From: Balanoglossus misakiensis
Lineage: Eukaryota; Animalia; Hemichordata
Direction of reading: 5' to 3'
Length of the DNA stretch: 64,000 nt
Assembly (NCBI GenBank): GCA_040954595.2
Contig: CM082598.2
Location: 7,579,097-7,643,096 of the forward strand
Position 1 is the stretch's first letter, and every line of letters starts with the position of its first letter. The notes below the pieces were generated by a model that saw only the letters and a list, made by a program, of their open reading frames with translations, searched no databases and had not been told where the DNA came from. Below are positions 22,588-61,540 of this stretch, in pieces. The position numbers and the translations under genes were made by a program.

Positions 22588-22795
22588 GGAATTCGCGCAT
22601 GCGCCAAGCCTATCAAATCGGGCATTGCTTTGCGACAGTAATAAAACAATGGTGTAATGTTACGGGGGGGGGGGGGGCTACAACGTTTTTAGTATGACCA
22701 ACCACCACCACCCCCCCCCCCCCACACACACACACACAAACACGTACGCATCACCACAAACAACAACAACATCATCATCATCATCATCATCATCA
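22588..22795 (+). repeat. Left terminal inverted repeat
   Basis: GGAATTCGCGCATGCGCCAAGCCTATCAAATCGGGCATTGCTTTGCGACAGTAATAAAACAATGGTG... is the reverse complement of 61358-61540. Confidence 0.95.
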
Positions 22796-23489
22796 TTTCA
22801 ACAATCAGCAGTAGCAGGTCGAGGAACATGAGGAAAGGAAGCTGTACGACCGTTTGTAGGTCGTGGCTATAGGTTTTTGATTTTCCCGTCCCTTCTCTCT
22901 CAACGACCGACAGGGTTGTGCTATTAAAGGTTTCTTTTCGACATATCTTCTCCCACGACCGGTTTTTGGTCGTGGCTATGCTAAATTTCCAATTTCTCGA
23001 CAAATCTTCTCCCACGACCGTTTTTTGGTCGTGGATATGTGAAGTCTTTGATTTCTTGGTGTTTCTTCTGCCGTGTCTTTATGTCTTCACTCTGCTCGTC
23101 ACTCAAGTGTTTTACCGACATATAAGGCGCCAATGGCCAAATAAATAAACATTCTTAGTGTGAAAGTAAAGCGCGCGATGATCTTGATGATGGCGCCTTT
23201 TTTAATTCCCATAATTCGCCAATATTGCGCAATAGCTGCAGTATAAAATGAACGTTCGCGCTTTTTGTCGTCACTTGTCGTGAAGATCGCCATGATCGTG
23301 GAAGACGTGCCGAACGATTTCCCAAACCATGGAATGGAAATCGGCATACGCCGAAAGAAAAAGTTTATTTCTAGGGCGGAATTTTGCCTGAAAGTACTTT
23401 GTAAAAATCGAAGGTGTGATTCAAGGCTACAAAGTGATGGTAAAATCTTCAAGATCCCCACTCTTCGCAGAGAGGTACGTATTACTTAA

Positions 23490-23674
23490 AGGTATACGGT
23501 CACCTCGAATTTGCATACGCGCATAGATGGCTGAAATGGCGTATTTGAGCGTTCTAAAGAACATATGGTGGCGCTCTTTTTTTCGCGTGTGCCACCCACT
23601 GAAAATCCGTGATTGGCTAGATCCCAATTCGCCATGGTAACTATAGCTAATTTTCCATAGGTGACCGTATACCT
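23490..23674. mobile_element. TTAA MITE in intron 1 of the helicase gene
   Basis: TTAA|AGGTATACGGTCACCT ... AGGTGACCGTATACCT|TTAA. Confidence 0.85.
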
Positions 23675-26600
23675 TTAACTGTTTTATTTAGTGTTCGACG
23701 AACGCGCCAAGATGCTGGGTGCTCTAAATGGGTTAGGTGATTTTATCTGATTTTAACAAAGTTAAAACCAGGGAAAGTTAACGAGGTTCGCGCCACTGAA
23801 TTGGCGATTTTTATAAACGCTTCACAATGTGTACATGCTGCTGATATTGTATTTTCATCGTATTCGGAAGTTGATTTCGATGATTGATAATGACTCTACG
23901 CGCCAAAGTCGATAGGCTAAATACGATATGATTTCGGGTTGTGGTAATATGCAGTAGCAGTGTGGTAAAACCGCGATAGAATCGTTAAAACAATAACCGT
24001 TACAAAGCTCGTTTCGATATAGTGAGGTCTGAAGATATGGATCTGAACCCTAATCACTGAGCACATAGAAAGTGCGCAAAACCGGATACGCCGCGTCTAT
24101 GTCGATCAGAGAGCGGACAGTCATGATATATTCCCCGAATCCGATGTCATTGCTTGGCGCAAAGCTATTTACAGTTTTTTTATGACGAGTGTAAACGAAA
24201 ATATATGTAATTTATTGAGAAAATAGCTTTTAATCACGAGATGAGTAAGCGTAGTTTTTCGGCGCTAAATTGGCAGTCGGTGAGCCCCCTGGGGTGACCC
24301 CCATTAAATGCTTCAAACCAAATCAGACCTGAAACCAAATGTTGTCGCTGCAAATTGTCCCCCAAATTTTGGGACCGCATAACTTTGTGTGGAGTGACCG
24401 TGCTTAGTATAATATTTGCGTAACTGCATGCATTTTTTCATCTAAAACATCATTGCGCGGCAAACTAAAATTGTGGCGCGAAGCGCACGATCATTCCCGC
24501 CCGATACTAGAAGTAGTACCGCGCCGCTTCGCGACACCTTCAGAATCGACCAGCCCCTGAAGCAGCGGAGATAAAATCCATTCTGGTATTATGTCCAATT
24601 CACTTGTTGCATCCCAATATAATTTGTATCCACAATATTAGCAAGGTAAAATTGTATATACAAACATTTTAGATGACATTTTTTTGACTCGGTAAAAAAA
24701 GATTGTCTTTAAAAATGTTCATGAAGCAGGGACATTATCTCTTGAGCGCTACAAAATTGCCCATCGGTTGATTATGTTCTCACTCAGTTAGTATGATGGT
24801 TAGTATGGACTTATTCATTAAAACATTTGGGTAGATGTATTAGCCAAGTTAGAATATGGTCGGGTCTGTCAAGAACTCCCAAAAGGAACATTAAAAAAAC
24901 CGCGAAAATTTCCCCGGGGGAAAAAGCGCGCTTTTATATCTGAATAAGCAGGCAACGTCAACGCTGATTGGTCCAGAAGATAATGAATTAATTATCTGAC
25001 GTCAAGTAATTATAACTTTCCAAGCGCGGGAGATACACATAGATACGGCTCCGCAGATGCCTCTCATTAAAAAGAGCTCCGCATCCTGTCATCAGCTCGG
25101 CCTGAATATGTTTACATTGAAAATACGCAATTTGATAGCAATAGTTTAATCTAGGAAGCCTTCTGCATCACTCAGATCATGAACGATGTCATAAACATAA
25201 TAAAACAGTGGTTACTTGGCAAGTGCTGAAGCCAAACAAGACCATACAGGGTACCAGCAATGCGCATAAGATATACGTGCGCACAGGGCAATAAAGTACC
25301 AAACTGCATTGATTTTCACTGGGTGGTTACACACTCTTCTAACGTTGCCGCCCTGATAGGTCCGTACTTGTAGTGAGGAATATACTAATTTATTAATGTA
25401 CATAAGGGGTGGACAATTTGATTGTGGGGGGGGGATTTGTCAAAAGCCTTTTGCCGGGAAAGAAAAACCTGTTCGGGCTGAGTAAAAAATGTTTCTAATA
25501 AGGCTTTCGAAACAATCTGTTTGGAGAAGAAACAATTGCTGCTGTGGTTGAAGAAAAAATATTGTCATACCCAATCCCTCCAGCCGTCCCCCAGAAATCA
25601 CATGGTCTACCCCTAAACTGCTGTATGTCAATTGTCATTTCACGATTGTCATGCACACTGTGGCCCCTTTGAGAAAGTTTGATATGGAAAGTTTGACAGT
25701 ATGTTACATTTAAGCTGAATTTAAACCACTCATCGGGTAGGGGAAGGGTTATATTATTTGCTCTAATACAAGGGAATTGTCTATCCCATGCCATAAGAAA
25801 ACACTTTGAAGTTTTACCTGCTCTTACCAACCATTAAAAATATGCAGAAGTCAAATAAAAAATGCTGAAAGTGCATTTTTAAAACCCAAACCTGCTTCAG
25901 GTAGTACAGTGGTAATTTAAATTTTGATAGTTTCTTGCATATACATGTGAATTTTTATTTATAATTTTAATTCATTGTCCTTTTATTTTCAGTAATTGTA
26001 TCATTACCATGGAGGATTTAACCAGCACTGAAAAATTGATCCGGTGTATAAATAACCAGACCAAACTGGGGGTTATTTGCTCCCTGAAGAGGGAGGAATT
26101 ATCCACCTACATCCAACAAAAAGTGTCCACTTTTTATGCAAATGACCAGGTGGTCACTCTAAACAGCACAAAAATGATTGGTTTTCAACCAATTGACAAA
26201 GTTTTTGTACTGTCAAATGAGGTAAGTTATCTTTTTATTATCATAACTGCTCTGAATTGTATGCATGTTCTGAACTTATAGTCATCAATGAGAATTCTTC
26301 AACCTCTTTTCTGTCAACATGTAAGCAGATCTAGTGGCAGTATGGGTAATAATAATGTTTGTGTGCATATGTACACATCGACTGATAGCTAACTACTTTG
26401 TGATAAGGATGAGTCAGACTCAAAGTCTAATTCTAAGGCTTATTACTGAGAGTTGACAGTTTGCTAGGCTTTTAATTCTGTTGACATTTTTTTATTTCAC
26501 TTACTATTCTTTTTTTCAAATTTTGTTTGTTTTCAAATTTGTTTTTTATTTTACCTACTGTTTGTACAATTGTGTATTTAGGCCCTTAGATTATTTTATT

Positions 26601-29600
26601 TCTTTGTTTTGATTTCCTATTTTATGTCTTTTTTATGTTAATATTTTTCAAAAATATTACATTTTTGGGGGGGGATATAGGCCACCTCAGTTTTAGTGAT
26701 ATATTAAGACATTTGGTCCCTTCATTTTTTCCTCTTCTTGTTTGCTTGCCATAATTGTCTGTTCTCAATGTTATATATGTAACAGATTTATCTCTATTCT
26801 TTTACAGTTGCAGTTTTCTGAAGATGGACATCTTCTGGAGAAACCAGTGTATATCCTGGCAGATGATGTAAAATATTTGGCCCCAAGAATACCTCTACCA
26901 CTTTGTCCAACTGAGGCCCCTTTGAAACATCTGTTGGAATTGATGAAGGTATATTAGAACATTTTTGCCTCCCTTTCCATACATTATGCACTGTTATTTT
27001 TTTTTTAATTTGCAGATCAACAGTAATGTTTTTTTGTGTGTGTTTGAGCTGTTTAAAAATATAATACGTTGCATTGTATGTATCAAAAACTTCCATAGAT
27101 GAGTAGAATGCTGAAAATTAATTGATGCCACCACCCAGCGCCACCAAGGTTTTGCTATATAAATTTACACTGAAAATCGTTATAATACCTTGGCATTTTG
27201 TGTAAATATCCTAGAAAATATGCTAGAAAATATGATTGTGTAATATGTCATAGTAATTTCTGGTGTGTTTTTTTAGTGAAACTAACACCAGTGTGGAGTC
27301 AAGGTCTACTATCATCATGGCTTTAACATTTTTTATATCAGTAGAACTCCAAATGCAATGCCTTGCCAGCGAGGTTACCACATGATCTCATTTTGAGTTC
27401 TTTTGACTTGCAAAAAATGTAAAAGCCACGATAGAAGACCTCGACGCTACGCCGGTGTGAGTCATTGTAAAAAACACTAGTCTTGATTCTAGCTAGACTA
27501 CCTTTATCATACAGTGGACCATTTAATAGCCTGGGAAGTTGTTTACTTTATGCTTAATTTCTTTTTACACTTCTCTTCGAGAGAAATCTCTTTTTCTCTC
27601 CATCGAAGTTAAAAATTCCCAAACCTTAGGAACAGACACCAAAAAATAAACCTTTAGGCATGTATATGCCAGAGACATATTTGTTTCTCATGACTTAGTT
27701 GGCCCAATAATGAAATTATAGCTGGACTGAGAGCAATGTCATAATACGCAGTCTCTATTTTAATAATTCTGATTTTTTTTCCAATTTATCCTCAACAGGG
27801 CATGTTCATGCATAACTTTATGCCTGCAGTAGGCATTCTTGCTGGTGGACTTATGTGTCTCCACTATACCACCATAGTGGAGACATTTGGCAGCTGTCCG
27901 GTGATATTTGCATTTTCCAAAGAAGTTGACACTGGGAAGACGACCAGCCTGAAAATGCTATGCCAACTCTATGGAATGGCTGAAGGATTCCACAGTAACA
28001 TATCGGAAGCGGTCATGAAAAAAGTACTCAGCATGTCTGCACTACCATGTGTCATCGACGATATGGACTCAATCACCGGAGTTGAAAAGTTGGCAGTTAG
28101 ATACTTTAAAGGTGGGACACAAACTTATTCACATGGCACGTACGCTCCAATTACGACATTTCTATGCTCGGCCAACTTCTCTTTGGGAGAAAACGCAAGG
28201 TAGGTGATTGAGGCTAATAGTATGATGGATATACATGAGCATGTTATCAACATCAATTTGTAATGTTTTAAAAACAAAAATATTAGCAAGTTTAATAATT
28301 AACAAGTGCCACACTTTATTCAACCGTCTATTGCGAGAATACACAACTATTGTTGTGTATAGTAGGCATGTGCTTGGGTATAAGAATCCCTCAGAATATA
28401 AAGGAAAAGATTGAAATACTTTATTGAATAATATTGGGAGCTATTGGGGCTTTGAACACCAGATGAGTAGTGAGAAAGTCAAGATTTCTAATTACTCCAC
28501 CATACCTCATGTATTTATATTATATTTACTTTTTTGCTTATTTCTTATTTATATATCTTTAAAGGGCTGGCAACACGGTGTCTCTTGGTACTATTTTCTT
28601 TGCCGAGCATCACACCAACGACACCTGAACAGTACAGGTACTTTGAAAATTCGACCACCGTAGCAATAGAGGCCTGCAGAGCTGGGATTGGAAATATGCT
28701 TGGAATTGGAAAACTATACCAAGAAAACCAGTATGAAATAAAGGAACTCTACAAGAAAGAGGTCGAAACAGTTCTCCTGGGAAAACATCCCAGATTGACT
28801 ACTGGATACGCGTCATTATTATACATGATGCGGGAGGTAAGAATACAAGGCAAAACTGAGTGTCATGTTCGTGTAACTACACATGTTGGCAAATAATGGC
28901 TGGTTTATACTGGAGTACTTGAAATCCTTCATGTGCTGTATTTCTATGGTTTTTTGGTAATTAGTATTTTGACCAGAAATGTGTACATGCATTAGTAGTT
29001 TAATTTACCAACATTAGTCAAACTTATGCTAGGGGCCTCACCTGTATTGTATTGTGTTATGAGTTTTGACATAAATTAGTGCATATTACAATAATTTTAA
29101 TACAGGTTATATTTTTAATCCATTTTTATTTACTGAAATGGATTATTGTCATTTTAGTATTTGTATTTTTAAAATTTCTCCATTGCAATTGTGTCCCAGC
29201 AATTTGAATTCTTTGGTATACTAGTAATCTCAAACTTACCCCTTGCTTTATATGTAGTGTTCCTAGGTAATCAATACGACATATGTTGTAAAACTTACTT
29301 ATCTCACCATGCATTTTTAAATCAACATTTTACTGCACATAACTGGTGGTACATGTCCACTGACACAATCCTATGTTGCACAAGCCCAAATCCATGATCA
29401 AAAAAGTATATAACATCTTAATCAAATGTTCACCTTAATTGAAAAGCTAAAGATGCAAACTATATTTGTATGCCATGTACAATAACATTATATATTTCAT
29501 ATGTTGCAAGATTCTGCTGCTTGGTGGCTATAAGAAGTCCATTCAGGAAATGGGACTCCATTTCAAGAACATGATGGCTCCTGTTGTGATGGATCTGCTA

Positions 29601-30644
29601 AATCTTCAAGAGGACAAGTCACAATCACTTTTCAACCATTTCCTCACAGACCTGCTGACAGTGGTTGAAATACACCGGAAGAAGTAAGTGCAGTTTTGTT
29701 TTCAGTAATTGAATTGATATGATAGATGCCTAATTCTCGAGTGGGCCTCCAAAGCAACTCTCTGTGAACATTTTTATCTGTTTTGTTATCACTTACAGCT
29801 GCCTTGATTCCATATAAAAGTTTAGTAACTAATTATGTTCAATGGTTGGTGTTAAATTAAATGTGTTCCTATAATGACATTTACCTTCATGTTTTAGGTT
29901 AAAACTTTTATCAACCACAAAACGTACCACTCTGGATGCGCAACATTTGCTGTTCATTTCCCATCGCTAATTGAACTAATGGCAGTAACAGTCAACGCTA
30001 TGTATAAGGAAAAGAAATATACCAAAAGCCTCTTCCAAACAGTAAGAGGACAGTTAAATTTGTTCTCGGGTCCAGAATGTTTACCAAAGATGGTAACTTT
30101 AATGATTTCACGTTTTTATCTCCTGTTTTGGGCATGCATGTATTTGTATAACAATGGGAGTGGTGACTGAGATAATTGTTGTCTGTTAGTGTAATTGTAT
30201 GTATGTATGTATGTATAATGCTATGGTATGGTATATGGTACCAGTTAGCTTATGTGGTTTCAAAATGACTAAACCTGACTTCCATCATTTTCCAAAAGAA
30301 CTTTAACAAAAAGTGTCATTGCTAAATATGTAATGTTCCAGCAATGGCCACAATCCCTGAAATTGAAAATAAACCTTTTAATTAAGATGATGCACTATTA
30401 CAATCAGTACACTTATGTATGTGTACATTTACACTTTGTTGCAGGAGATGTTGGGAAATGGCCACGCAAGGCAGTACAAAATGACCAGCTTCGCTGCAGC
30501 CTCAAAACAGGTTTGTTCTAATTTTTATGTACTTTTCACATTATGTTCAACCTCACTCTTGATCAGTTACATGTACATACTTTAGGCAAATAAGTACCAG
30601 TAAAACATAGTACACTTTTATTTGCAGCTATCTGCAATAAATGT

Positions 30645-33600
30645 AGCGAGAACGAGTCTTCCCAAGCAGCATATGACATGGATGTAACCCCGGCAACCTC
30701 AACCCCCAGCGCATGGACAAGGGAGAGAACGAGTCTTCCCAAGCAGCATATGACACGGATGTAACCCCGGCCACCTCAACCCCCAGCACAGGGACAAGGG
30801 ACAGCGAGAACGAGTCTTCCCAAGCAGCATATGACACGGATGTAACCCCGGCCACCTCAACCCCCAGCGCAGGGACAAGGGACAGCGAGAACGAGTCTTC
30901 CCAAGCTGCATATGACAGGGATGTAACCCCGGCCACCTCAACCCCCAGCGCAGGGACAAGGGACAGCGAGAACGAGTCTTCCCAAGCTGCATATGACACG
31001 GATGTAACCCCGGCCACCTCAACCCCCAGTGCAGGGACAAGGGACAGCGAGAACGAGTCTTCAAAAGCAGCATATGACACGGATGTAACCCCGGCCACCC
31101 CAACCCCCAGCGCAGGGACAAGGGACAGCGAGAACGAGTCTTCCCAAGCAGCATATGACACGGATGTAACCCCGGCCACCCCAACCCCCAGCGCAGGGAC
31201 AAGGGACAGCGAGAACGAGTCTTCCCAAGCAGCATATGACACGGATGTAACCCCGGCCACCCCAACCCCCAGCGCAGGGACAAGGGACAGCGAGAACGAG
31301 TCTTCCCAAGCAGCATATGACAGGGATGTAACCCCGGCCACCTCAACCCCCAGCGCAGGGACAAGGGACAGCGAGAACGAGTCTTCCCAAGCAGCATATG
31401 ACAGGTATGTAACCCCGGCCACCTCAACCCCCAGCGCAGGGACAAGGGACAGCGAGAACGAGTCTTCCCAAGCAGAATATAACACGAATGTAACCTTGGC
31501 CACCTCAACCCCCAGCGCAGGGACACTTAGGGACAGCGAGAACGAGTCTTCCCAAGCAGCATATGACACAGATGTAACCCCGGCCACCTCAACCTCCAGC
31601 GCAGGGACAAGGGACAGCGAGAACGAGTCTTCCCAAGCAGCATATGACACGGATGTAACCCCGGCCACCTCAACCTCCAGCGCAGGGACAAGGGACAGCG
31701 AGAACGAGTCTCCCCAAGCAGCATATGACAGGGATGTAACCCCGGCCACCTCAACCCCCAGCGCAGGGACAAGGGACAGCGAGAACGAGTCTTCCCAAGC
31801 AGCATATGACATGGATGTAACCCTGGCCACCTCAACCCCCAGCGCAGGGACAAGGGACAGCGAGAACGAGTCTTCCCAAGCAGAATATAACACGAATGTA
31901 ACCTTGGCCACCTCAACCCCCAGCGCAGGGACACTTAGGGACAGCGAGAACGAGTCTTCCCAAGCAGCATATGACACAGATGTAACCCCGGCCACCTCAA
32001 CCTCCAGCGCAGGGACAAGGGACAGCGAGAACGAGTCTTCCCAAGCAGCATATGACACGGATGTAACCCCGGCCACCTCAACCTCCAGCGCAGGGACAAG
32101 GGACAGCGAGAACGAGTCTCCCCAAGCAGCATATGACAGGGATGTAACCCCGGCCACCTCAACCCCGGCGCAGGGATAAGGGACAGCGAGAACGAGTCTT
32201 CCCAAGCAGCATATGACATGGATGTAACCCCGGCCACCTCAACCCCCAGCGCAGGGACAAGGGACAGCGAGAACGAGTCTTCCCAAGCAGAATATAACAC
32301 GAATGTAACCTTGGCCACCTCAACCCCCAGCGCAGGGACACTTAGGGACAGCGAGAACGAGTCTTCCCAAGCAGCATATGACACAGATGTAACCCCGGCC
32401 ACCTCAACCTCCAGCGCAGGGATAAGGGACAGCGAGAACGAGTCTTCCCAAGCAGCATATGACATGGATGTAACCCCGGCCACCTCAACCCCCAGCGCAG
32501 GGACAAGGGACAGCGAGAACGAGTCTTTCCAAGCTGCATATGACAGGGATGTAACCCCGGCCACCTCAACCTCCAGCGCAGGGACAAGGGACAGCGAGAA
32601 CGAGTCTTCCCAAGCAGCATATGACAGGTATGTAACCCCGGCCACCTCAACCCCCAGCGCATGGACAAGGGACAGCGAGAACGAGTCTTCCCAAGCAGCA
32701 TATGACACGGATGTAACCCCGGCCACCTCAACCCCCAGCGCATGGACAAGGGACAGCGAGAACGAGTCTTCCCAAGCAGCATATGACACGGATGTAACCC
32801 CGGCCACCTCAACCCCCAGCGCAGGGACAAGGGACAGCGAGAACGAGTCTTCCCAAGCAGCATATGACACGGATGTAACCCCGGCCACCTCAACCCCCAG
32901 CGCAGGGACAAGGGACAGCGAGAACGAGTCTTCCCAAGCAGAATATAACACGAATGTAACCTTGGCCACCTCAACCCCCAGCGCAGGGACACTTAGGGAC
33001 AGCGAGAACGAGTCTTCCCAAGCAGCATATGACACGGATGTAACCCCGGCCACCTCAATCCCCAGCGCAGGGACAAGGGACAGCGAGAACGAGTCTTCCC
33101 AAGCTGCATATGACAGGGATGTAACCCCGGCCACCTCAACCCCCAGCGCAGGGACAAGGGACAGCGAGAACGAGTCTTCCCAAGCAGCATATGACAGGGA
33201 TGTAACCCCGGCCACCTCAACCCCCAGCGCAGGGACAAGGGACAGCGAGAACGAGTCTTCCCAAGCTGCATATGACACGGATGTAACCCCGGCCACCTCA
33301 ACCTCCAGCGCAGGGATTAGGGACAGCGAGAACGAGTCTTCCCAAGCAGCATATGACACGGATGTAACCCCGGCCACCTCAACCTCCAGCGCAGGGCAAG
33401 GGACAGCGAGAACGAGTCTTCCCAAGCAGCATATGACACGGATGTAACCCCGGCCACCTCAACCCCCAGCGCAGGGACAGGGGACAGCGAGAACGAGTCT
33501 TCCCAAGCAGCATATGACACGGATGTAACCCCGGCCACCTCAACCCCCAGCGCAGGGACAAGGGACAGCGAGACGAGTCTTCCCAAGCAGCATATGACAC

Positions 33601-36600
33601 GGATGTAACCCCGGCCACCTCAACCCCCAGCGCAGGGACAAGGGACAGCGAGAACGAGTCTTCCCAAGCAGCATATGACACGGATGTAACCCCGGCCACC
33701 TCAACACCCAGCGCAGGGACAAGGGACAGCGAGAACGAGTCTTCCCAAGCAGCATATGACATGGATGTAACCCCGGCCACCTCAACCCCCAGCGCAGGGA
33801 CAAGGGACAGCGAGAACGAGTCTTCCCAAGCAGCATATGACAGGGATGTAACCCCGGCCACCTCAACCCCCAGCGCAGGGACAAGGGACAGCGAGAACGA
33901 GTCTTCCCAAGCAGCATATGACAGGTATGTAACCCCGGCCACCTCAACCCCCAGCGCAGGGACAAGGGACAGCGAGAACGAGTCTTCCCAAGCTGCATAT
34001 GACACGGATGTAACCCCGGCCACCTCAACCCCCAGCGCAGGGACAAGGGACAGCGAGAACGAGTCTTCCCAAGCAGCATATGACACGGATGTAACCCCGG
34101 CCACCTCAACCCCCAGCGCAGGGACAAGGGACAGCGAGAACGAGTCTTCCCAAGCAGAATATAACACGAATGTAACCTTGGCCACCTCAACCCCCAGCGC
34201 AGGGACACTTAGGGACAGCGAGAACGAGTCTTCCCAAGCAGCATATGACACGGATGTAACCCCGGCCACCTCAACCCCCAGCGCAGGGACAAGGGACAGC
34301 GAGAACGAGTCTTCCCAAGCAGCATATGACACAGATGTAACCCCGGCCACCTCAACCTCCAGCGCAGGGACAAGGGACAGCGAGAACGAGTCTTCCCAAG
34401 CAGCATATGACACGGATGTAACCCCGGCCACCTCAACCTCCAGCGCAGGGACAAGGGACAGCGAGAACGAGTCTCCCCAAGCAGCATATGACAGGGATGT
34501 AACCCCGGCCACCTCAACCCCCGGCGCAGGGATAAGGGACAGCGAGAACGAGTCTTCCCAAGCAGCATATGACATGGATGTAACCCCGGCCACCTCAACC
34601 CCCAGCGCAGGGACAAGGGACAGCGAGAACGAGTCTTTCCAAGCTGCATATGACAGGGATGTAACCCCGGCCACCTCAACCTCCAGCGCAGGGACAAGGG
34701 ACAGCGAGAACGAGTCTTCCCAAGCAGCATATGACAGGTATGTAACCCCGGCCACCTCAACCCCCAGCGCAGGGACAAGGGACAGCGAGAACGAGTCTTC
34801 CCAAGCTGCATATGACACGGATGTAACCCCGGCCACCTCAACCCCCAGCGCAGGGACAAGGGACAGCGAGAACGAGTCTTCCCAAGCAGCATATGACACG
34901 GATGTAACCCCGGCCACCTCAACCCCCAGCGCAGGGACAAGGGACAGCGAGAACGAGTCTTCCCAAGCAGAATATAACACGAATGTAACCTTGGCCACCT
35001 CAACCCCCAGCGCAGGGACACTTAGGGACAGCGAGAACGAGTCTTCCCAAGCAGCATATGACACGGATGTAACCCCGGCCACCTCAACCCCCAGCGCAGG
35101 GACAAGGGACAGCGAGAACGAGTCTTCCCAAGCTGCATATGACACGGATGTAACCCCGGCCACCTCAACCCCCAGCGCAGGGACAAGGGACAGCGAGAAC
35201 GAGTCTTCCCAAGCAGCATATGACACGGATGTAACCCCGGCCACCTCAACCCCCAGCGCAGGGACACTTAGGGACAGCGAGAACGAGTCTTCCCAAGCAG
35301 CATATGACACGGATGTAACCCCGGCCACCTCAACCCCCAGCGCAGGGACAAGGGACAGCGAGAACGAGTCTTCCCAAGCTGCATATGACAGGGATGTAAC
35401 CCCGGCCACCTCAACCCCCAGCGCAGGGACAAGGGACAGCGAGAACGAGTCTTCCCAAGCAGCATATGACACGGATGTAACCCCGGCCACCTCAACCCCC
35501 AGCGCAGGGACAAGGGACAGCGAGAACGAGTCTTCCCAAGCTGCATATGACAGGGATGTAACCCCGGCCACCTCAACCCCCAGCGCAGGGACAAGGGACA
35601 GCGAGAACGAGTCTTCCCAAGCAGCATATGACACGGATGTAACCCCGGCCACCTCAACCCCCAGCACAGGGACAAGGGACAGCGAGAACGAGTCTTCCCA
35701 AGCAGAATATAACACGAATGTAACCTTGGCCACCTCAACCCCCAGCGCAGGGACACTTAGGGACAGCGAGAACGAGTCTTCCCAAGCAGCATATGACACG
35801 GATGTAACCCCGGCCACCTCAATCCCCAGCGCAGGGACAAGGGACAGCGAGAACGAGTCTTCCCAAGCTGCATATGACAGGGATGTAACCCCGGCCACCT
35901 CAACCCCCAGCGCAGGGACAAGGGACAGCGAGAACGAGTCTTCCCAAGCAGCATATGACAGGGATGTAACCCCGGCCACCTCAACCCCCAGCGCAGGGAC
36001 AAGGGACAGCGAGAACGAGTCTTCCCAAGCTGCATATGACACGGATGTAACCCCGGCCACCTCAACCTCCAGCGCAGGGATTAGGGACAGCGAGAACGAG
36101 TCTTCCCAAGCAGCATATGACACGGATGTAACCCCGGCCACCTCAACCTCCAGCGCAGGGCAAGGGACAGCGAGAACGAGTCTTCCCAAGCAGCATATGA
36201 CACGGATGTAACCCCGGCCACCTCAACCCCCAGCGCAGGGACAGGGGACAGCGAGAACGAGTCTTCCCAAGCAGCATATGACACGGATGTAACCCCGGCC
36301 ACCTCAACCCCCAGCGCAGGGACAAGGGACAGCGAGACGAGTCTTCCCAAGCAGCATATGACACGGATGTAACCCCGGCCACCTCAACCCCCAGCGCAGG
36401 GACAAGGGACAGCGAGAACGAGTCTTCCCAAGCAGCATATGACACGGATGTAACCCCGGCCACCTCAACACCCAGCGCAGGGACAAGGGACAGCGAGAAC
36501 GAGTCTTCCCAAGCAGCATATGACATGGATGTAACCCCGGCCACCTCAACCCCCAGCGCAGGGACAAGGGACAGCGAGAACGAGTCTTCCCAAGCTGCAT

Positions 36601-49665: not shown

Positions 49666-50297
49666 CTCGACAATGGCTGATACAGTCCTCTCCCCTATTC
49701 TGAATTGAAAGGAAAGACTTCTGAACGTTTCTCCTAAAAAAGAAGAACAAAATTATCATTAACTCCCAGACTAGTTAAATATTTTTAGCAATGCTGAAAA
49801 TTGTTTGAAAATAGTAAAAAAAAACCATGATGTCCAACATGTGCTACACAAGGTTTATGAACCCCCATGCTCGTATACATTTGACCTTAACTTGAACTAG
49901 TCTGAAAACATCAACATATATTTTGTTTAATCACTTGCCAGCATTTATTTTACCTACCTGTAGCAAGGAATCGTAATGTAACAGCAAGTCTTTCACTAGG
50001 ATCAACTGCTGATCGCATATTTGTGTTCTGTTTGGAAATGAGAGGGCCAACCATTGCCAGGACATCTTGGAAGGATTGGCTGTCTAGTCGATGGAACTGG
50101 CGGAATCTTTCAGGGTCTTCAGTCCTCAACTCTTGGATCAGGTTTGCATATGCTCCTTGAGCCTGTCGTCGCAAAATCCATTGTCGAGCCCAGGTTGTTC
50201 GAGCTGCCGCTCTCAACCGGCGTCAACGTCTATGAAGCAGCAAAAGAAATAATAACGCTTCTTCATCCTCTGATGCACTGGAATCTGTCAATTCCAT
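49621..50297 (-). pseudogene. PIF/Harbinger transposase, N-terminal part (2 exons)
   Basis: W..QWILRR..QGAYANLIQELR..D...FRQFHRL...F...L...P.I.KQNTNMRSAV.PSERLAVTLRFLATG|ETFRSLSFQFRIG..TVS.IV.ETC; stop codon at ~50223; DDE core absent. Confidence 0.9.
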
Positions 50298-50762: not shown

Positions 50763-51057
50763 TGTGGTATTTCTGGAGAATACCTCACCTGGAGTATACC
50801 AGTGCCTGGAGATTCCTGTGGAAATGCTGATTGGGTGGTGACCCTTATGTGACCTGTCACGTGACCCCGTGAAGGTTATATATATCACCGTGGGACCGGA
50901 AGCCGGGGTTCTCTCTCGTCTCGTCCATGGTCTGGTGCTACACGCTCTACTTGTTCTGGACCCGGACCGCCTGCACGCACTCAACTAGGTGAGTATGCGT
51001 TACGGGCATTGACTAGGGAAACCTTTCCGTGGCGTTGAAGTTGGGGAAAACGCTACA
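50763..51057 (+). repeat. 5' LTR (TATA ~50876, splice donor AG|GTGAGT at 50989)
   Basis: Identical to 54241-54535 except at 3 positions by my count. Confidence 0.97.
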
Positions 51058-51058
51058 T

Positions 51059-51076
51059 TGGCGCTGCGAGCAGGGT
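51059..51076 (+). promoter_or_regulatory. Primer binding site, probably tRNA-Ser
   Basis: TGGCGCTGCGAGCAGGGT lies 1 nt after the LTR and resembles the complement of eukaryotic tRNA-Ser 3' ends. Confidence 0.75.
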
Positions 51077-51089
51077 AGAAAAAGGGAAA

Positions 51090-51458
51090 AGCCGGAAATT
51101 AAGTCATCCGTGCAAAGGACCTGGGATTATAATCAACAAGTTAACACCATACTTGTATAAGGTAAAATTCCAGCGGGCCATAGTAACTGCCCACCATGAT
51201 CGGCTTAAGCTATGTCGGAACCGAGACCTGCCCCAATGGGTCATGAGGTATCAAGAAAATCTCAAACGGAATAGTACAGGTAAGGCAGAGATCGCCGATG
51301 TATCATCGACACTATATTGTGTTTGTCGGAAGCCCTATCGTGGTGAGTTCATGATCCAGTGTGATGCTTGCTCGGAGTGGTACCATGGACACTGCGTTGG
51401 GGTGACGACCAGGGATGCGCGGAGGATTTCTGTTTATACTTGTCCGGCATGTTCTTAA
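51090..51458 (+). pseudogene. Integrase C-terminal (GPY/F-like) remnant fused to a PHD finger
   Basis: PCKGPGIIINKL..YLYKVK....HHDRLK followed by YCVCRKPY.GEFMIQCDACSEWYHGHCVG...YTCPAC*. Confidence 0.85.
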
Positions 51459-51489
51459 TCTATTGTCTTTCTCTTCATTGTCCACAGAC

Positions 51490-53862
51490 ATGGCTTCTTC
51501 GTCTCCACCTGATTCACCCAAGCGCCAATGGAAGGAGGTCGCTCCGACTGATCCAAGTGCCGCTCGCCAGCGTCTTAGCCAGGAGATATCCGATGCTACC
51601 ACCAATGACTTCCTTTGGCAAGTTCGAGAGCTCGTCAATGGCATCGGTGTTATCTCCATGGGACCTGACCGGTCTGTGGCACAGGGCCAGGAGCTCCTGA
51701 TCGGTCAATACACCATAGCGGCCCGGAGGAAGCGATGGGGATGGATCAGAGCCCTGCGCAAAGACGTCGATCTTTGCCTTGGTTTTGATCGCGCTTGGAT
51801 TGATGAACATCTTCCTCATCCAAATCCAAGAGAAAACACTTGGTCTGCTCCCCAAAGGTCCAAGAAGTCGGCTTCGTATGAAGTTCCACCTGATGGTATG
51901 TACCGGGACTTCCGTCTTCAGGACCCTGAGCAAGTGGAAAAATGGCAGCGGGAGTCTGTGCACTCAGGTATCCCGCAAGAGGTGCTGCCCGCAGCACCTC
52001 TGCCAGACGTCCAACGCACTCGGGGGCCGGGGGCGGGGGAACTGGTATGTCCACCGGTTGGATCCATATCGGAGGTGCAACCGGTGTTGGTTTCTGCCCC
52101 GGTGGAGGCAGCGCCGGAAGTACTTCCTGCGCCTATGGAAACGGCTAGCCCGCAACGAGGACCAGCGGTGAGGAAGGCTGTGGTGGCAACTGGCCGGGGT
52201 AAGAAGAAGTCCAGTAGAGGTAAGAAGGGGAAGGGGGTTCTGAATCAGCCTCCTGTTGGCTCCGCAGGGAGTCAGCGGGTGCAACGATCTAGCCCTCTTT
52301 CTCTGGTCGGACCCTATAGTGAGGCTTTTCTCCCGGTTGGTTTAGGGCAACCCCCTCTCGTTCCTCTTCCCCCAGGCTACCTTGGAATACCGCCGGCAGA
52401 TCATGTTCGTTGTCCCTTGCCGGAGTGCACGGAGGTAACTGTGGACCTCAGGGCTCATGTCTTGGGTAAGCATGTTCCTCCGGTACTCCGGGGTGATCAT
52501 CCTTTCGAGGCTTGGAGAGTGTTCCATGCTTTGGGCATTCTTCATTCCTGGATTGTTGGGGGATCACCAGGTTCACCGGCCATGAGCTTGTTGGTTTATT
52601 TCGAGCGGTTTGGCCATGTCTTTCTTCCGCCGGTTTCATCGGTAGAGGAAGAGTATTTTCCTTTGATGCATCAACTATGTAGGGATTTGGGGTGGGAGCC
52701 CATGCTACGGTTTGGACTCCACCCGCCAAATTCTCCCGCTGGACTCGTTCACTGGAGAGTGCTCTTGGTTTTGTTGGGTTTTCTTTCTCCTTTGCAGAGA
52801 GCGGAGTTTGCAGGCCTCTTCAGCGGGGATCGGCAGATTCTGCAGGCCAAGAAAACCAAGCAGAGCCATCCTCTGCCCAGGAAGTCGTGCACTGTGTCCC
52901 GATCACAGGAAGCGCAAGATTTGATTGCCTCGGCAACTGCTTCTGCTTCAGGGAGCCAGAGTTTGGATGTAGGTCCTCGCCCGACTAAGTCTAAGGGTAA
53001 GGTGAAATGTGTTGGCAGTGCGGCTTCGCCACTAGGAGCCTTTGATTCTCATTTTCATTTGGATCGATTGACTTCTTCGTGGCGGGGTACTGTCACCCGC
53101 GTGACATCGGACGTAGTGGTCTCCTCCCCTTCCATGCTGAAATCACTGACGGGGATTCCCGTATTGGGTGGGGTGGAGGTTTACTGTGACCCTACGACTT
53201 TTCCCACCAATCTTTCCCGGAGTAAGCGTTGGAAAATTGGCATTGCTGTGGGAATACATCCCAAACAGGCGGCAACACTGACTGGAAGTCGACTGGAGAA
53301 GTTCAAGGAATTAATCCAATCCCCTCAGGTGGCAGCAATTGGGGAGGTTGGGTTAGATTTCTCTGTTGAGACAGACAAATGGCCCCTCCATGAGACAGTG
53401 TTCAGGTTGGCCCTTTCCCAGTGTGATCCACGGAAGCTCCTGGTTCTGCACATCAGAGGAGCTACTGGAGATGTGTGTATTGCTGCTGTCGGGCGTAGGG
53501 CTCTTGAAATCGTTCGTGAGTACTGCGCCAGTGAGCAGTTGATCCACTTCCATGGCTTCACTGGAGATCGTTTTGTGGTCGAGTGCTGGATCAGGGATTA
53601 TCCGTACTGTTACTTCAGCTTTAATGCTGGTGTTAACACTTTTTCTACCCCTCAGCTTGAAGCACTCAGGGCGGTGCCAGAGGATCGTCTTCTCTTGGAG
53701 ACGGACTCCCCGTACTTCCCTGTGGCCAATGGTGCCAAGCCCAACACTCCAGCCTTTATCGGAGATGTTGCTGTCCTGGTTGCGGCGCGGCGGGGGATAC
53801 CTCTGAACCAGCTACTGGAAGCTGCTGCCAACAACACCAGGCGCTTGTACAGCTTCGACTGA
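51490..53862 (+). CDS. 790-aa protein: Pro-rich N-terminus, C2H2-like Zn finger, C-terminal TatD-family metal-dependent DNase
   Basis: Uninterrupted ORF. TatD motifs FDSHFH, VGIHP, IGEVGLD, LVLHIR, IHFHGF and LLETDSPY are all intact (domain from ~53035); CPLPEC...HVLGKH finger; ATG lies 2 nt after a splice acceptor. Confidence 0.92.
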   Translation: MASSSPPDSPKRQWKEVAPTDPSAARQRLSQEISDATTNDFLWQVRELVNGIGVISMGPDRSVAQGQELLIGQYTIAARRKRWGWIRALRKDVDLCLGFDRAWIDEHLPHPNPRENTWSAPQRSKKSASYEVPPDGMYRDFRLQDPEQVEKWQRESVHSGIPQEVLPAAPLPDVQRTRGPGAGELVCPPVGSISEVQPVLVSAPVEAAPEVLPAPMETASPQRGPAVRKAVVATGRGKKKSSRGKKGKGVLNQPPVGSAGSQRVQRSSPLSLVGPYSEAFLPVGLGQPPLVPLPPGYLGIPPADHVRCPLPECTEVTVDLRAHVLGKHVPPVLRGDHPFEAWRVFHALGILHSWIVGGSPGSPAMSLLVYFERFGHVFLPPVSSVEEEYFPLMHQLCRDLGWEPMLRFGLHPPNSPAGLVHWRVLLVLLGFLSPLQRAEFAGLFSGDRQILQAKKTKQSHPLPRKSCTVSRSQEAQDLIASATASASGSQSLDVGPRPTKSKGKVKCVGSAASPLGAFDSHFHLDRLTSSWRGTVTRVTSDVVVSSPSMLKSLTGIPVLGGVEVYCDPTTFPTNLSRSKRWKIGIAVGIHPKQAATLTGSRLEKFKELIQSPQVAAIGEVGLDFSVETDKWPLHETVFRLALSQCDPRKLLVLHIRGATGDVCIAAVGRRALEIVREYCASEQLIHFHGFTGDRFVVECWIRDYPYCYFSFNAGVNTFSTPQLEALRAVPEDRLLLETDSPYFPVANGAKPNTPAFIGDVAVLVAARRGIPLNQLLEAAANNTRRLYSFD

Positions 53863-54221
53863 ACGGGTAATCTTTGGGGGGGTCCTAGGCTGCAGTATTG
53901 GCGTTAGACTGTGAAATCCATATTACATCCGGAGCTGCCTTCCATGGGTCTTTCCCTTTTATCTGGGCCCACGCCACTGGGGATATTTTTGCTTGTTGGT
54001 TTTTGTTACTTCCGGTCCCTCCCCAGTGGCAGTAAAATTGTGTTTGCCACCATCGTGTAAGAATCGATCTCGACGGTATGGCTCTAAAAAGTCCCCAAAA
54101 AAGAAAAAAAAACGTGCCATATCCCGGATTGATTCGAATCGGCTGTTCTGTCCATAATCATCTAACCATCTATGAAAGGAATCTCCCAGTTTCCAGAGAT
54201 CCACACGGAACCCATCGCTTC

Positions 54222-54240
54222 AGAAGAAAACAGGGGAGAG
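54222..54240 (+). promoter_or_regulatory. Polypurine tract
   Basis: AGAAGAAAACAGGGGAGAG immediately 5' of the 3' LTR. Confidence 0.85.
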
Positions 54241-54535
54241 TGTGGTATTTCTGGAGAAAACCTCACCTGGAGTATACCAGTGCCTGGAGATTCCTGTGGA
54301 AATGCTTATTGGGTGGTGACCCTTATGTGACCTGTCACGTGACCCCGTGAAGGTTATATATATCACCGTGGGACCGGAAGCCGGGGTTCTCTCTCGTCTC
54401 GTCCATGGTCTGGTGCTACACGCTCTACTTGTTCTGGACCCGGACCGCCTGCACGCACTCAACTAGGTGAGTATGCGTTACGGGCATTGACTAGGGAAAC
54501 CTTTCCGTGGCGTTGAAGTTGGGGAAAACACTACA
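54241..54535 (+). repeat. 3' LTR
   Basis: Direct repeat of 50763-51057, followed by the TSD CACT. Confidence 0.97.
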
Positions 54536-54958: not shown

Positions 54959-57900
54959 TTAACAAACAAAAAATAACTGAGCCAGTGATTCCAACTGGGT
55001 ATTAACAGTGCAACATTCTATATGGGAGCATTAACTTGCAGTTTGTTTGTAAAAGGGATATCCAAAATACTACATGTAGTAATTATAATCTATTTGTTGG
55101 GAAATGCAGACAAGAAAATCAGTCAGTCAGGTTGTTGTCTATGCTACCAGTAATCCCTGAGCAAACTCTAGCTACATATTACATGTACCAGTATATCAGA
55201 AATCATTCATTGACACATTCACACTTATTTTGTTTATCTAGTACCGACTACTTTTTCTAGCATATTCTATGAATCCTCTCACTGTTGTTGGTATTTGCTT
55301 CGTTTTCATTTGTTGGCAATGTTGAAGACAAAATGCTGATCCTTGTTCAGTTTCTTTGGTACAGACATCAGGAAAGTTTAGATTAGAAAAGCCTGCAATC
55401 TTCATTGGTACTTTAAACATGCAGTGTGAGAAAATTAACTTCCACAGTCCGTCTGTTGTGAACAGTCTTCCACATCCTTTAAATCAAAGATTTTATGATA
55501 AATACAAAACATAACATGAATAACACAGTATGGCTCAAAATTGATCAGCATTGGTTATACATGTATACATACTAAATTACTATGATTCATTTTTTGTAGA
55601 CACATGTTTATAGTTATGGATTTTCCATGACACAAACTGAGATAATGAAGAATTTATTAAAGCTATGGCTTCTTTGACAATGAATAAATCCAGCAAGTGC
55701 TAGAAAAGCCCATAAATGCTATGTAATATACTTTTAAACTAGAGGAGAAAACATTGAGGATGATAAAATAGTCTTTCTTTTCTTTTTTAAGCCAGATAGA
55801 TATAATGTTTAAAACTAAATTGACAGGAAAACTAGAAAAACAAATGAGTTACTAGTATTTACCTCTTTCCTCACACCCTTTACTACAGTTTTCATGCTTA
55901 TACAGACATTTCACCCTTTCAAGTTCATTATATTCCATGAAATCCTTGAACGTCTTCTGTTTGTTGAAAGCCCAAGTCTGGAGCAGTGAATGGTCTTTCA
56001 GCTAACTTCTGACTTCTTCAGCCCAAAATGCTGATGCTGCCACTTTCCTAGTGAAAACAGCTTCCAATTGAACTGGGTGACATTCAGCTACAAGATATAT
56101 TGTAAAGAATCATAGTAAATGATTAAGACTTTCAAAAAAGTAAAATGTGGATGCCCGGTACTCAGTTGATTGTTTTAATGGAAGCCACATATTATGCCTT
56201 AATTATTTCATATACGCATGCTCACGGAAATATCTGATAGAGTGCAACATGCAGTATGATTGTGAAGCAAGCCATGTCTTATTCAGTAATCTGTCTATAC
56301 TGAACAGTGTTTAAAAGGATCCTCTATAAACCAAACAGCACTGCATGCAAACAGAATAATTTTCACAATCCTTTAAATGTTTTGTTAGGATCAACAGGTT
56401 GGACTATATAAAACTTACCTGAGCAATTTTCTTGTACACTGCTGCTTTGTAACATATCTGAAGCTGTCCATCATCACAATATGAAAGAAACAATCAAAAA
56501 AAATTATGCAATCATAATGACAATGAACTGAATATGCCCACATGGCTTTTCAGTAACGATTGCAAATGTGAAAATTAGCATATAGTGCTCCTATTGTTGT
56601 GAAATTATGATTCAGCAAATCACATGACTTTAAAGCAGTAAATCTGCTCTTCAGGTAATTAGTGTACTATTTTTAATTAACACCAGTATAGCTATACTGT
56701 ATGTAAATAACAACTTCATCACATATGCAAATTTGCTGTTTGTTGCTCACAGATTGCATGGCATGCTTATTCAACATGAGACCAGTATCACTTTCAGGTT
56801 TCATTGGATTTATTGTAGTAATGGTACAATTCCATCATGCATTGATGATTCATGACAGTACTCCCTTCAGCTAAAATGGTCTTTTGAAATCCATGGATAT
56901 ATGACCATGTATCAAGGTAGTGGCTCTACACACAAACAAATCAAAACCCAATCACTGTCATGCCAGGCTGTCTTATACTAGACAAACAAACAAGCTATAT
57001 ACACCAGTGTTATTGTACATAAGTAATTTGATACTAATAACCAGTAATCAACAGCTGTACTAAAAATATAAATGCAATACCTGAGAAACTGTGGAAATTT
57101 TTTCTTCTTCTTCCTCTGTCAAAATAGAAACACCTGACTGACTCTCTTCCCTTGCTGTTGAAAAGACAATGATATAGGATAACTGTCTCGCTTTCTTCAA
57201 CAGATAAATGGCCATTAAAATGCATGCAGGAAAATGCAATGAAAAGCAGAAACCCAAGAAGCCTTATTCTCAATGCTGATTTATTGATTAAATTTCGCCT
57301 TTGAATGAGTAAAAACATCTACCGAACTTGGCAATGCATCTGTCAAAATTGGATTTGGGTTTCATGACTTGTTCATTTTCTATGTCATGCATAGGCGACG
57401 TAAACACACCCATCATGCAACTGTGACTACAAGAGATAAAACTGCACAGAAAAAATGTAATGTTAAAAATGAGTAACTGTGTCCATTTACAAACAAATGT
57501 ATACTCTAATATATTCTGAACATAATGTAAAAGGGTATACTTACATGTAAGGACATCTTTTGTGTTGATGTAATTCATGGTACACCGAGTGGCTTCATTG
57601 TACGCCTCAGCAAAACCTGAGAATGAAACCCATGAATGATGCCTGGGGGAAATAATAAATATATAAATGTAAGGACTAGAGAAGATGCAGCATTTGTAAT
57701 CTAGCAAAACTAAAATAAAGTAGGCTCACTGACTAGAATGTACGTAAGAACACTTATTTTAGAACATCAATATGCTACTATAGAATATAGACCCCAGTAT
57801 GTGTTATAACTTGCTTGCTCCAATCTACTACACTAAGTGGGTTACTGACATACATAAACTATTGAATATATGTAATATTAATAGAGAGTGCAGCAAGAGC

Positions 57901-58937: not shown

Positions 58938-59899
58938 GGGGTGGGACATAGTTATAGAGTAATTAAAGAAACTTACGCTAATGCGGACTGGAATCGGTAC
59001 ACGTCTCTGTGTACATAAACCTTCGTGGAAGCTTCCAAAAATTCACAACTGTCTTCATAAAATCGCCTTCCGTCAACCGAAGTATAATAATATGGGGAGA
59101 ATGTCGAAGCACCACAATCCTTATTTTGGCACCGCAGAGTGATTTTTGATGCCGGTACTGGGCCGGAAAGCAGATATAGTGTCACATTCGTTGGCTCATG
59201 AAATGATGAGAGTTGTGAATCACAACCACAACAGCTTGTCACGGGTGGTGCCAGGAAATGGAGGTAATTTTTCCCCGAAGATTTTGACAAATTCCATAAT
59301 AGATCAACGAATTTGCCTGAGCTAGAATATACGAATGACCCACTAGTCCACATGTTATCAACCAGAGCTGATAAGCGTTCTACCTCTCTCGCGGAAATGG
59401 CTTTCGCTCGTTCACCTCCGGGCTCTATAGATGTCTCTGTCAGCCAGTGGTTGAGGATATCTGCTATGAATTCTATCTGTACTGCACGAAGCTATCTGGT
59501 ATATGGGCAAGCGACAGCGACAGTAGCTTTGTTCCTTCACACCCGAGGCACGAAAATAAAACAAACTCTTTTTCCTGTCTCGTCAGCGACATTCTTGCAA
59601 TGGTATCCCATGCATCCGTTTTCGCGGACAGTGCGGATCGGAAATCGTTCACATTATCTACACAATCGGTAAGTGAACTTCTGATCGCTCGATGAGCCGC
59701 ACCATCCACTTGACATGCAGCATCAAATACAGCAAAGTCCGTACATTTGGTTTTTCGCTGTTTAGGTGGCATCCTGTAGCTGCGGTTCGGAGGTCAACGG
59801 AAATGTGGAAAACAGTGGGGTCGTCACGACTAGACAACAAGCTTGCAAGCAGCCTGCTGAGTGCTGGCGCTGTGTACAGTTTTGTGCTCAAAGACTAAA

Positions 59900-61340
59900 A
59901 AATCCACGACCAAAAACCGGTCGTGGCAGAATATACGTAGAGAAATCAAAGACCTAAACATATCCACGACCAAAAAACCGGTCGTGGCAGAATATACGTA
60001 GAGAAATCAAAGACTTAAACATATCCACGACCAAAAAACCGGTCGTGTGGGAATATACGTAGAGAAATCAAAGACTTCAACATATCCACGACCAAAAAAA
60101 CGGTCGTGGCAGAATATACGTTGAGAAATCAAAGACTTAAACATATCCACGACCAAAAAACCGGTCGTGGCAGAATATACGTAGAGAAATCAAAGACTTC
60201 ACATATCCACGACCAAAAAACCGGTTGTGGCAGAATATACGTAGAAAAATCAAAGACTTAACATATCCACGACCAAAAAACCGGTCGTGGCAGAATATAC
60301 GTAGAGAAATCAAAGACTTAAACATATCCACGACCAAAAAACCGGTCGTGGCAGAATATACGTAGAGAAATCAAAGACTTCAACATATCCACAACCAAAA
60401 AACCGGTCGTGGCAGAATATACGTAGAGAAATCAAAGACTTAAACATATCCACGACCAAAAAACCGGTCGTGTGGGAATATACGTAGAGAAATCAAAGAC
60501 TTAAACATATCCACAACCAAAAAACCGGTCGTGGCAGAATATACGTAGAGAAATCAAAGACTTAAACATATCCACGACCAAAAAACGGTCGTGGCAGAAT
60601 ATACGTTGAGAAATCAAAGACTTAAACATATCCACGACCAAAAAACCGGTCGTGGCAGAATATACGTAGAGAAATCAAAGACTTCACATATCCACGACCA
60701 AAAAACCGGTTGTGGCAGAATATACGTAGAAAAATCAAAGACTTAACATATCCACGACCAAAAAACCGGTCGTGGCAGAATATACGTAGAGAAATCAAAG
60801 ACTTAAACATATCCACGACCAAAAAACCGGTCGTGGCAGAATATACGTAGAGAAATCAAAGACTTCACATAACCACGACAAAAAAACCGGTCGTGTGGGA
60901 ATATACGTAGAGAAATCAAAGACTTCAACATATCCACAACCAAAAAACCGGTCGTGGCAGAATATACGTAGAGAAATCAAAGACTTCACATAACCACGAC
61001 CAAAAAACCGGTCGTGGCAGAATATACATAGAGAAATCAAAGACTTCACATAACCACGACCAAAAACCGGTCGTGGGAGAATATACGTAGAGAAATCAAA
61101 GACTTAAACATATCCACGACCAAAAAACCGGTCGTGGGGGAATATACGTAGAGAAATCAAAGACTTCACATATCCACGACCCAAAAACCGGTCGTGGGGG
61201 AATATACGTAGAGAAATCAAAGACTTCACATATCCACGACCCAAAAACCGGTCGTGGGGGAATATACGTAGAGAAATCAAAGACTTCACATATCCACGAC
61301 CTAAAACCGGTCGTGGGAGAATATACGTAGAAGAAAATCA
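59900..61340. repeat. Subterminal ~60-bp tandem array (~23 copies) with internal palindrome
   Basis: Unit ACATATCCACGACCAAAAAACCGGTCGTGGCAGAATATACGTAGAGAAATCAAAGACTT; inverted copies at ~22930-23056. Confidence 0.97.
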
Positions 61341-61357
61341 GAAACTTAACACAACCA

Positions 61358-61540
61358 CGATGATGATGTTGTTTGTGGTGATGCTTACGTGTTTGTGTGT
61401 GTGTGTGGTGGGGGGGGGGTGGTGGTGGTTGGTCATACTAAAAACGTTGTAGCCCCCCCCCCCCGTAACATTACACCATTGTTTTATTACTGTCGCAAAG
61501 CAATGCCCGATTTGATAGGCTTGGCGCATGCGCGATTTCC
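61358..61540 (-). repeat. Right terminal inverted repeat
   Basis: ...GCAAAGCAATGCCCGATTTGATAGGCTTGGCGCATGCGCGATTTCC is the reverse complement of the left TIR. Confidence 0.95.

Follow-up and report, generated by a model that had tools for sequence, protein, structure and literature searches.

A defunct copy of a transposon, probably of Kyakuja type (KDZ), in Balanoglossus misakiensis, with a CxC5 transposase gene and a gene for an ATPase-PHD protein of predicted Cch-like fold

Introduction

Can a KDZ-type DNA transposon of an animal carry its own helicase-like ATPase, and what would such a protein do for the element? The question is raised by a stretch of 64,000 nucleotides of the Balanoglossus misakiensis genome (GenBank assembly GCA_040954595.2, contig CM082598.2, positions 7,579,097 to 7,643,096 of the forward strand), which is called the window here and is numbered from its first base. 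A sequence-only reading of the window had proposed a KDZ-type transposon of about 39 kb at 22588-61540, with inverted ends and two spliced genes that meet tail-to-tail. The interpretation towards which the present analysis leans is that a DNA transposon with two genes, probably of Kyakuja type (KDZ), is present at 22436-61534 as a dead copy. One encodes a CxC5 transposase. The other encodes an ATPase with a PHD finger, which is predicted to have the fold of the Cch ring helicase and would likely be the element's own chromatin-tethered unwinding motor in cut-and-paste transposition. A single pair of near-identical ends encloses the two genes, both of which are dead in this copy, having acquired frameshifts and stops; the 3' end of the transposase gene was not found. 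The proposal of one KDZ-type element holding both genes is supported, but the subgroup is refined to probably Kyakuja, the inverted repeat is subterminal on the left, and the copy is dead.

To our knowledge, no mechanism has yet been established for the transposition of KDZ elements. TnsC of Tn7, IstB of IS21 and MuB are AAA+ ATPase partners of DDE transposases, and among eukaryotes a ring motor of the Cch/MCM-like kind that bears a PHD finger would correspond to such bacterial transposon ATPases. With this element one could test directly how large elements locate their targets in chromatin or open them. It would also explain scattered 'uncharacterized' proteins of marine invertebrates as probable transposon genes.

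Ends and size of the element

The inverted ends are real. The segments 22588-22776 and 61359-61540 are identical in 178 of 182 aligned columns and share a perfect core of 70 bp. The mirrored subterminal palindromes that had been described are also real, forming an array on the right and degenerate units on the left. The terminal features are as follows.

22436-22587, plus strand: probably the true left terminus, with the outer 152 bp, opening with CACATATG; the subterminal motif occurs twice here, at 22469 and 22482
22588-22776, plus strand: left inverted-repeat arm, subterminal here
22846-23072, plus strand: left palindromic 60-bp units, about 3-4, degenerate
59888-61360, minus strand: right palindromic array of 60-61-bp units, 24.4 copies (tandem-repeat analysis)
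61359-61540, minus strand: right inverted-repeat arm, whose last six bases are common to the flanking host repeat; probable deletion joint

The ends were mapped by aligning contigs of one sample (runs X1-X3 of one study; the sample is possibly the window's own source) to both window ends. On the left, a repeat contig with a depth of about 1600 spans 21451-22437 and then diverges from the window in both informative runs. The two bases preceding 22438 are compatible with either side; if they are included, the element starts with CACATATG at 22436. The approximately 150 bases outside the left arm hold two copies of the subterminal motif and are therefore part of the element. On the right, a second high-depth repeat piece starts at 61535, preceded by a loose end, and six bases are compatible with both the repeat and the arm. 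Of the bounds proposed earlier, the left one thus has to be moved outwards by about 150 bp, to a junction at 22436-22438, and the right junction lies at 61534-61540. A contig in run X2 lacks 318 bases inside the left end (22625-22944), so that a deleted variant of the end exists.

The span of about 39 kb is correct but is inflated by a coding tandem array of 12.9 kb and by nested elements that total about 4.7 kb; without these, about 21.5 kb remain. The hairpin of the 60-bp unit, with two units folded as DNA, has z-scores of -5.3 and -3.7 relative to shuffled sequences. The palindromic units would likely be binding sites for the transposase.

The transposase gene

The transposase gene runs on the minus strand, starting near the right end.

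58977-59772, minus strand: exon 1 with the CxC5 domain (Pfam PF18718, E 1.6e-10, above the cut-off); frameshift near 59480
57642-57545, ~57157-57082, 56463-56419, 56087-55863 and 55476-55245, minus strand: middle exons
47537-47690, minus strand: exon with an in-frame stop at 47542-47544, joining the core exon in frame (splice sites)
46042-46288, minus strand: core exon with SES and YD..C motifs; the family-like sequence seems to stop near 46140

The CxC5 part of the CxC5/CxC6 KDZ-like transposase that had been proposed is confirmed by Pfam, which describes this domain as KDZ-associated; we take the CxC5 cluster to be linked to Kyakuja. The middle exons are 68-76% identical to a Ptychodera flava fragment, XP_070538641. 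The last of them, 55476-55245, is rich in Cys and His and constitutes the second cysteine cluster, while exon 56087-55863 carries a stop at 56002-56004. The SES and YD..C motifs of the last exon are presumably those of the KDZ core. The motifs that we presume to follow them were sought in six frames and no fitting place was found for them, and therefore the end of the catalytic domain seems to be missing. No Pfam match to CxC4 with SWIM or to CxC1, the Zisupton and Dileera types, was found in the exons scanned, a subset of all. The transposase is dead by its stops and its truncation, even if the single-base frame breaks in short runs were assembly errors.

The ATPase-PHD gene

The second gene runs on the plus strand, starting near the left end. 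The PHD finger that had been predicted for it is borne out by a Pfam match in the last exon.

23292-23474, plus strand: tentative exon 1, probably with 1 bp inserted (ranked second among 2161 six-frame segments scored with a profile of animal N-termini, E only 0.3)
25993-26221, plus strand: exon 2 (AG/GT sites)
26808-26948, plus strand: exon 3 (AG/GT sites)
27799-28199, plus strand: exon 4 with Walker A, Walker B and sensor 1 (AG/GT sites, motifs)
28565-28836, plus strand: exon 5 with a probable arginine finger and the lid (AG/GT sites, motifs)
29511-29683, 29898-30041 and 30445-30510, plus strand: exons 6, 7 and 8 (AG/GT sites)
30628-43630, plus strand: giant exon containing an 81-bp coding tandem array of 158.9 copies (30645-43549)
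45669-45857, plus strand: last exon with the PHD finger (Pfam PHD, E 5e-6)

Exons 2-6 are 39-76% identical to the Ptychodera protein XP_070550256. Exon 1 found no support in a tblastn search, and its phase agrees with that of exon 2 only if a 1-bp shift is assumed. The frame is broken by single bases at three places, namely in exon 1, at the 28565 junction and near 29675. The intron at 28199 appears to be an old one shared by animal ATPase genes, because 46 of the 74 homologs with recognizable motifs (74 of 149 were examined) stop at most 40 residues past sensor 1, which is where the intron lies in the window. Two kinds of contig of similar depth cover exon 2 (25855-26391), one identical to the window and the other about 8% diverged, representing a second copy or a divergent allele.

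The array in the giant exon is organized in higher-order repeats. In 25 of its 158 spacings the period is 80 bp, which breaks the frame, and there is a stop near the array's end; the 80-bp spacings may include assembly errors. Repeat linkers are plain in six of the animal ATPase homologs, and the array is an enlarged version of that linker. A polyadenylation-like signal is found at 45992, past the PHD exon.

The two genes are convergent, as had been described. However, their meeting point is probably in part a deletion scar, because both genes are broken and the 3' end of the transposase gene was not found. A more far-reaching explanation is that a deletion near 46040-46140 joined two half elements of one family, or joined to the Kyakuja family an ATPase-only element sharing its ends, and therefore that an intact element would not have this convergent layout. 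The transposase does break off at the meeting point, and the flanks give neither an empty site nor a target duplication, as discussed below. Against this, the arms are 98% identical and inverted as in a single element, and even in a chimera both genes would adjoin the same end sequences. Such an origin is considered very unlikely.

Fold and relatives of the ATPase

A full protein search with the Ptychodera ATPase gave 226 relatives at E<=0.001, of which 150 were listed. When 21 homologs were looked up, 12 were named animal proteins, one clustered with Crocosphaera proteins and 8 were unnamed. The named animal proteins come from the sponge Amphimedon, the coral Paramuricea, the sea stars Patiria and Acanthaster, the lancelet Branchiostoma and the acorn worm Ptychodera. 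Within Branchiostoma, divergent ATPase lineages occur side by side, as expected of a mobile gene. A domain scan of 29 homologs revealed a PHD finger in three, primase-type domains in four others and a KDZ domain in none. The Walker A residue K170 and the Walker B residues D210 and D211 are invariant in the 44 rows of the alignment, and the sensor-1 residue N249 is present in at least 90% of them; the Walker A Lys, the Walker B acidic pair and the sensor-1 Asn are all kept in the window's exon.

The sequence-only reading had called the ATPase DUF927/Cch/SF3-like. The first two terms are supported, whereas SF3 helicases are not the closest kin. The Atlas clusters nearest to the ATPase carry DUF927, and the Pfam DUF927 profile matches the Ptychodera protein with an E-value of 0.1 and two animal-type homologs with E-values of 5e-4 and 1.6e-4, slightly below the cut-off. 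Sequence searches of the PDB and PHROGs gave weak matches only. A model of the Ptychodera homolog, predicted from the 44-row alignment, has a pLDDT (predicted local distance difference test) score of 86.9, compared to 39.5 for a single-sequence model. This model superimposes onto Cch with a Z-score of 23.1 (346 aligned residues, root mean square deviation 9.3) and onto the SaPIBov1 Rep protein with a Z-score of 20.5 (296 aligned residues, root mean square deviation 4.3). The next match is MCM8/9, with a Z-score of 12.9. Foldseek likewise ranks Cch first, and in the viral library phage DUF927 proteins and Toprim-fused proteins lead. The superfamily 3 (SF3) helicases E1, large T, Rep and D5 were set aside as the nearest kin, their Z-scores of 7-12 being far under that of Cch; the MCM-like Cch kind is nearer, although a more distant relation to SF3 may exist. 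TnsC and IstB were also set aside, since TnsC, IstB and MuB are all missing from the 50 structural matches listed.

The ATPase thus resembles Cch of SCCmec and SaPIBov1 Rep (PDB 5DGK and 8TCH) in its predicted fold over almost all of 430 residues, in its DUF927 signal and in its ATPase motifs. The sequence identity is 12-15%, and, unlike these proteins, the animal one is encoded with introns and has a repeat linker and a PHD finger. In the sections of PMC7581432 and PMC9371898 that are available, the partners of Cch and SaPIBov1 Rep are a recombinase and a primase or single-stranded DNA-binding protein, whereas here the partner is a DDE-type transposase.

The nearest prokaryotic relatives that were found are cyanobacterial primase-helicase fusions from Crocosphaera, Richelia and others, which have Prim-Pol/PriCT domains in front and no PHD finger, unlike the present ATPase. 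Over 377 columns, the profile of the animal type can be aligned to that of the cyanobacterial type with a probability of 100 and an E-value of 2.5e-41. At nine cyanobacterial loci (L002-L010), where 36 of 68 neighboring frames were scanned, the neighbors include ParA, relaxase, pRiA4b ORF3, Tn3, integrase and reverse transcriptase genes, and no KDZ gene was found among the frames scanned. By gene content, the setting of these relatives is plasmid-like or island-like. In a quick unrooted tree of 85 of the 149 rows, eight prokaryote-type rows fall on one side of a branch with a Shimodaira-Hasegawa-like approximate likelihood-ratio (SH-aLRT) value of 100. An old transfer from prokaryotic mobile elements to animals is probable. 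As the tree is unrooted, this direction would follow from the fold being widespread in prokaryotes and from the introns of the animal genes.

According to PMC7581432 and PMC9371898, Cch and the Rep proteins of SaPI elements are initiators that load themselves and bind to short repeats of the element that encodes them, and SaPI origins contain short repeats in opposite orientation to which Rep binds. The element might accordingly be replicative: the ATPase would be a self-loading initiator that melts the iteron-like palindromic arrays, and host primase and polymerase would copy the element before or after excision. The best structural matches are exactly such initiators, the Rep-bound repeats at SaPI origins point the same way, and the nearest prokaryotic relatives are primase-helicase fusions next to ParA, relaxase and integrase genes. 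However, a primase domain is absent from all the animal homologs scanned (within the 29). When a C-terminal winged helix of the iteron-binding kind was sought with a profile of eight prokaryotic (cyanobacterial) C-terminal segments, neither the window nor 11 animal-type proteins scored higher than shuffled sequences, the folded homolog stopping before that part. The copy number looks low as well, the contig depth over the ATPase exons being about 55-115 compared to about 1600 for the flanking repeat, although contig depth is a poor measure and was not taken as copy number. Finally, the PHD finger points to chromatin and not to an origin. The replicative explanation is regarded as improbable. 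A bolder version, of which we are equally doubtful, is that an animal KDZ lineage acquired a replication helicase of the self-loading kind from a mobile element of cyanobacteria, replaced the primase with a histone-reading finger and copies itself from the palindromic end arrays. If true, this would be a DDE transposon of eukaryotes that encodes an initiator for its own replication.

Comparison with other transposons

The left junction has the 5'-CA terminus expected of Kyakuja, and the fungal element Kyakuja-1_LB opens with the same eight letters, CACATATG, as the left end at 22436. Among 24 of the 38 Kyakuja rows in Table S1 of PMC12730594 (first 400 bases each), eight start with CACATA and 16 with CAC. 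CACATA occurs 23 times on the plus strand of the window, and the chance of one lying within three places is about 0.001, for a match that was noticed after the fact. Kyakuja elements, as represented in the available part of that paper, also resemble the present one in having a cysteine-cluster transposase and palindromic repeats near an end. Their size is 9-31 kb in the rows examined, compared to about 21.5 kb here without the array and the inserts. The present element differs in its animal host and its ATPase-PHD gene; the TET/JBP gene is not seen here, and the 7-bp target duplication of Kyakuja was not found at its ends, the right one of which appears deleted.

In excerpts of PMC11343200 and PMC9297572, Zisupton, Dileera and the Cryptococcus elements KDZ1-3 and KDZx1 likewise comprise several exons or genes and end in terminal inverted repeats, which measure 236 bp in KDZ1, but they have CxC1 or CxC4 instead of CxC5, 8-bp duplications, and extra genes without predicted domains.

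The analogy drawn earlier to AcademH or Tn7 TnsC is valid in one respect. AcademH and KolobokH, as they appear in the consulted parts of PMC10045372 and PMC10799480, are eukaryotic DDE transposons with a second, helicase gene, as here. However, their helicases are of the DEAD/Helicase_C type (superfamily 2, SF2), another kind than the Cch/MCM-like motor, and their transposases belong to other superfamilies. Kinship with TnsC is not supported, as the fold points to Cch and MCM.

The claim that a KDZ lineage with such a helicase is undescribed has held up: a full-text literature search found no description, and no published KDZ element with such a helicase was found among titles and the starts of abstracts. 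Iyer 2014, the AcademH paper, Böhne 2012 and Repbase may bear on the novelty. The accessible text of Kojima 2025 (PMC12730594) contains the word 'helicase' once, for Helitrons, and 'ATPase' never.

Linkage of the two genes and weighing of the evidence

Several observations weigh against the interpretation of the locus as a helicase-carrying Kyakuja-type element. A second locus with both genes was not found in any other genome, in a weak search with four candidates. The sole transposase homolog retrieved is on a 39.8-Mb Ptychodera contig, and the two Ptychodera ATPases are on contigs of 0.9 Mb and 13.2 Mb. Word-based protein searches matched Ptychodera proteins alone, and scans of viral contigs gave no locus. 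A single metagenome locus, obtained with a three-row alignment query, turned out to be false, being the opposite strand of a prokaryotic-looking gene. No Pfam match to CxC6, which had been part of the original description, or to the KDZ core was obtained with single exons. At the ends, a target-site duplication of at least 4 bp is absent for all eight end pairs tested. The right terminus with its TG-3' end was not found, and the right end appears deleted. The flanks do not join as a single empty site, and the continuation of the left host repeat was not found within the window. Two fungal Kyakuja families are described in the available portion of PMC12730594 as being without terminal inverted repeats, whereas here there is a 180-bp inverted repeat, 152 bp inside the left end. 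Lastly, the fold points to replication initiators and not to known targeting ATPases.

The separate location of the genes in Ptychodera, along with the linkage not found elsewhere, is what would be expected if the ATPase-PHD gene were a passive hitch-hiker, acquired by a Kyakuja family and unneeded for transposition, like other KDZ cargo. KDZ elements often carry extra genes (PMC12730594, in the part available). However, nothing marks the ATPase gene as an ordinary gene of the host: its copies are patchy and highly divergent, and have relatives in prokaryotic mobile elements. That the gene is passive cargo is therefore thought rather unlikely. The window probably contains a copy from an undescribed helicase-carrying lineage of Kyakuja, for which we infer the following mechanism.

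Possible mechanism and history

At either end, the transposase would bind the palindromic 60-bp units, and it would cut at the CA terminus. The ATPase would assemble as a hexameric ring, and the PHD finger, on its long linker, would dock it on histone tails or nucleosomes. The ATPase might then open nearby DNA or translocate along it, letting target capture or gap repair proceed.

The present copy would have inserted into a high-copy host repeat. Its right terminus was presumably deleted at the 6-base shared sequence, together with some host DNA, and the 3' end of the transposase gene would have been lost. Its history would also include the insertion of the nested elements and the growth of the linker array.

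Nested elements and surroundings

The introns of the two genes contain several insertions.

23486-23678, strand not assigned: miniature inverted-repeat element of high copy number in ATPase intron 1, with TTAA at either end
48956-49665, strand not assigned: foldback element with 143-bp arms, in a transposase intron
49950-50222, minus strand: fragment in a transposase intron, with no family match above the cut-off
50763-54535, plus strand: long terminal repeat (LTR) retroelement relic in a transposase intron, with 295-bp LTRs that are 99% alike, TG..CA ends and a 4-bp target duplication

The fragment at 49950-50222 resembles what we take to be the N-terminus of a PIF/Harbinger transposase. Inside the LTR relic at 50763-54535 are a piece of integrase-tail/PHD type and an open frame of 818 codons, the end of which encodes a TatD nuclease domain (Pfam E 1e-37); gag and reverse transcriptase were not seen in it.

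Outside the element, two overlapping frames of 581 and 599 codons on the minus strand at 9924-13434 resemble a DNA transposase gene from a different family, broken by a frameshift. A broken frame at 63700-64000 resembles what is presumably the reverse transcriptase of a long interspersed nuclear element. The right flank contains a tandem duplication of roughly 400 bp at 61683-62468, and the window starts with a 122-bp satellite at 3-1385.

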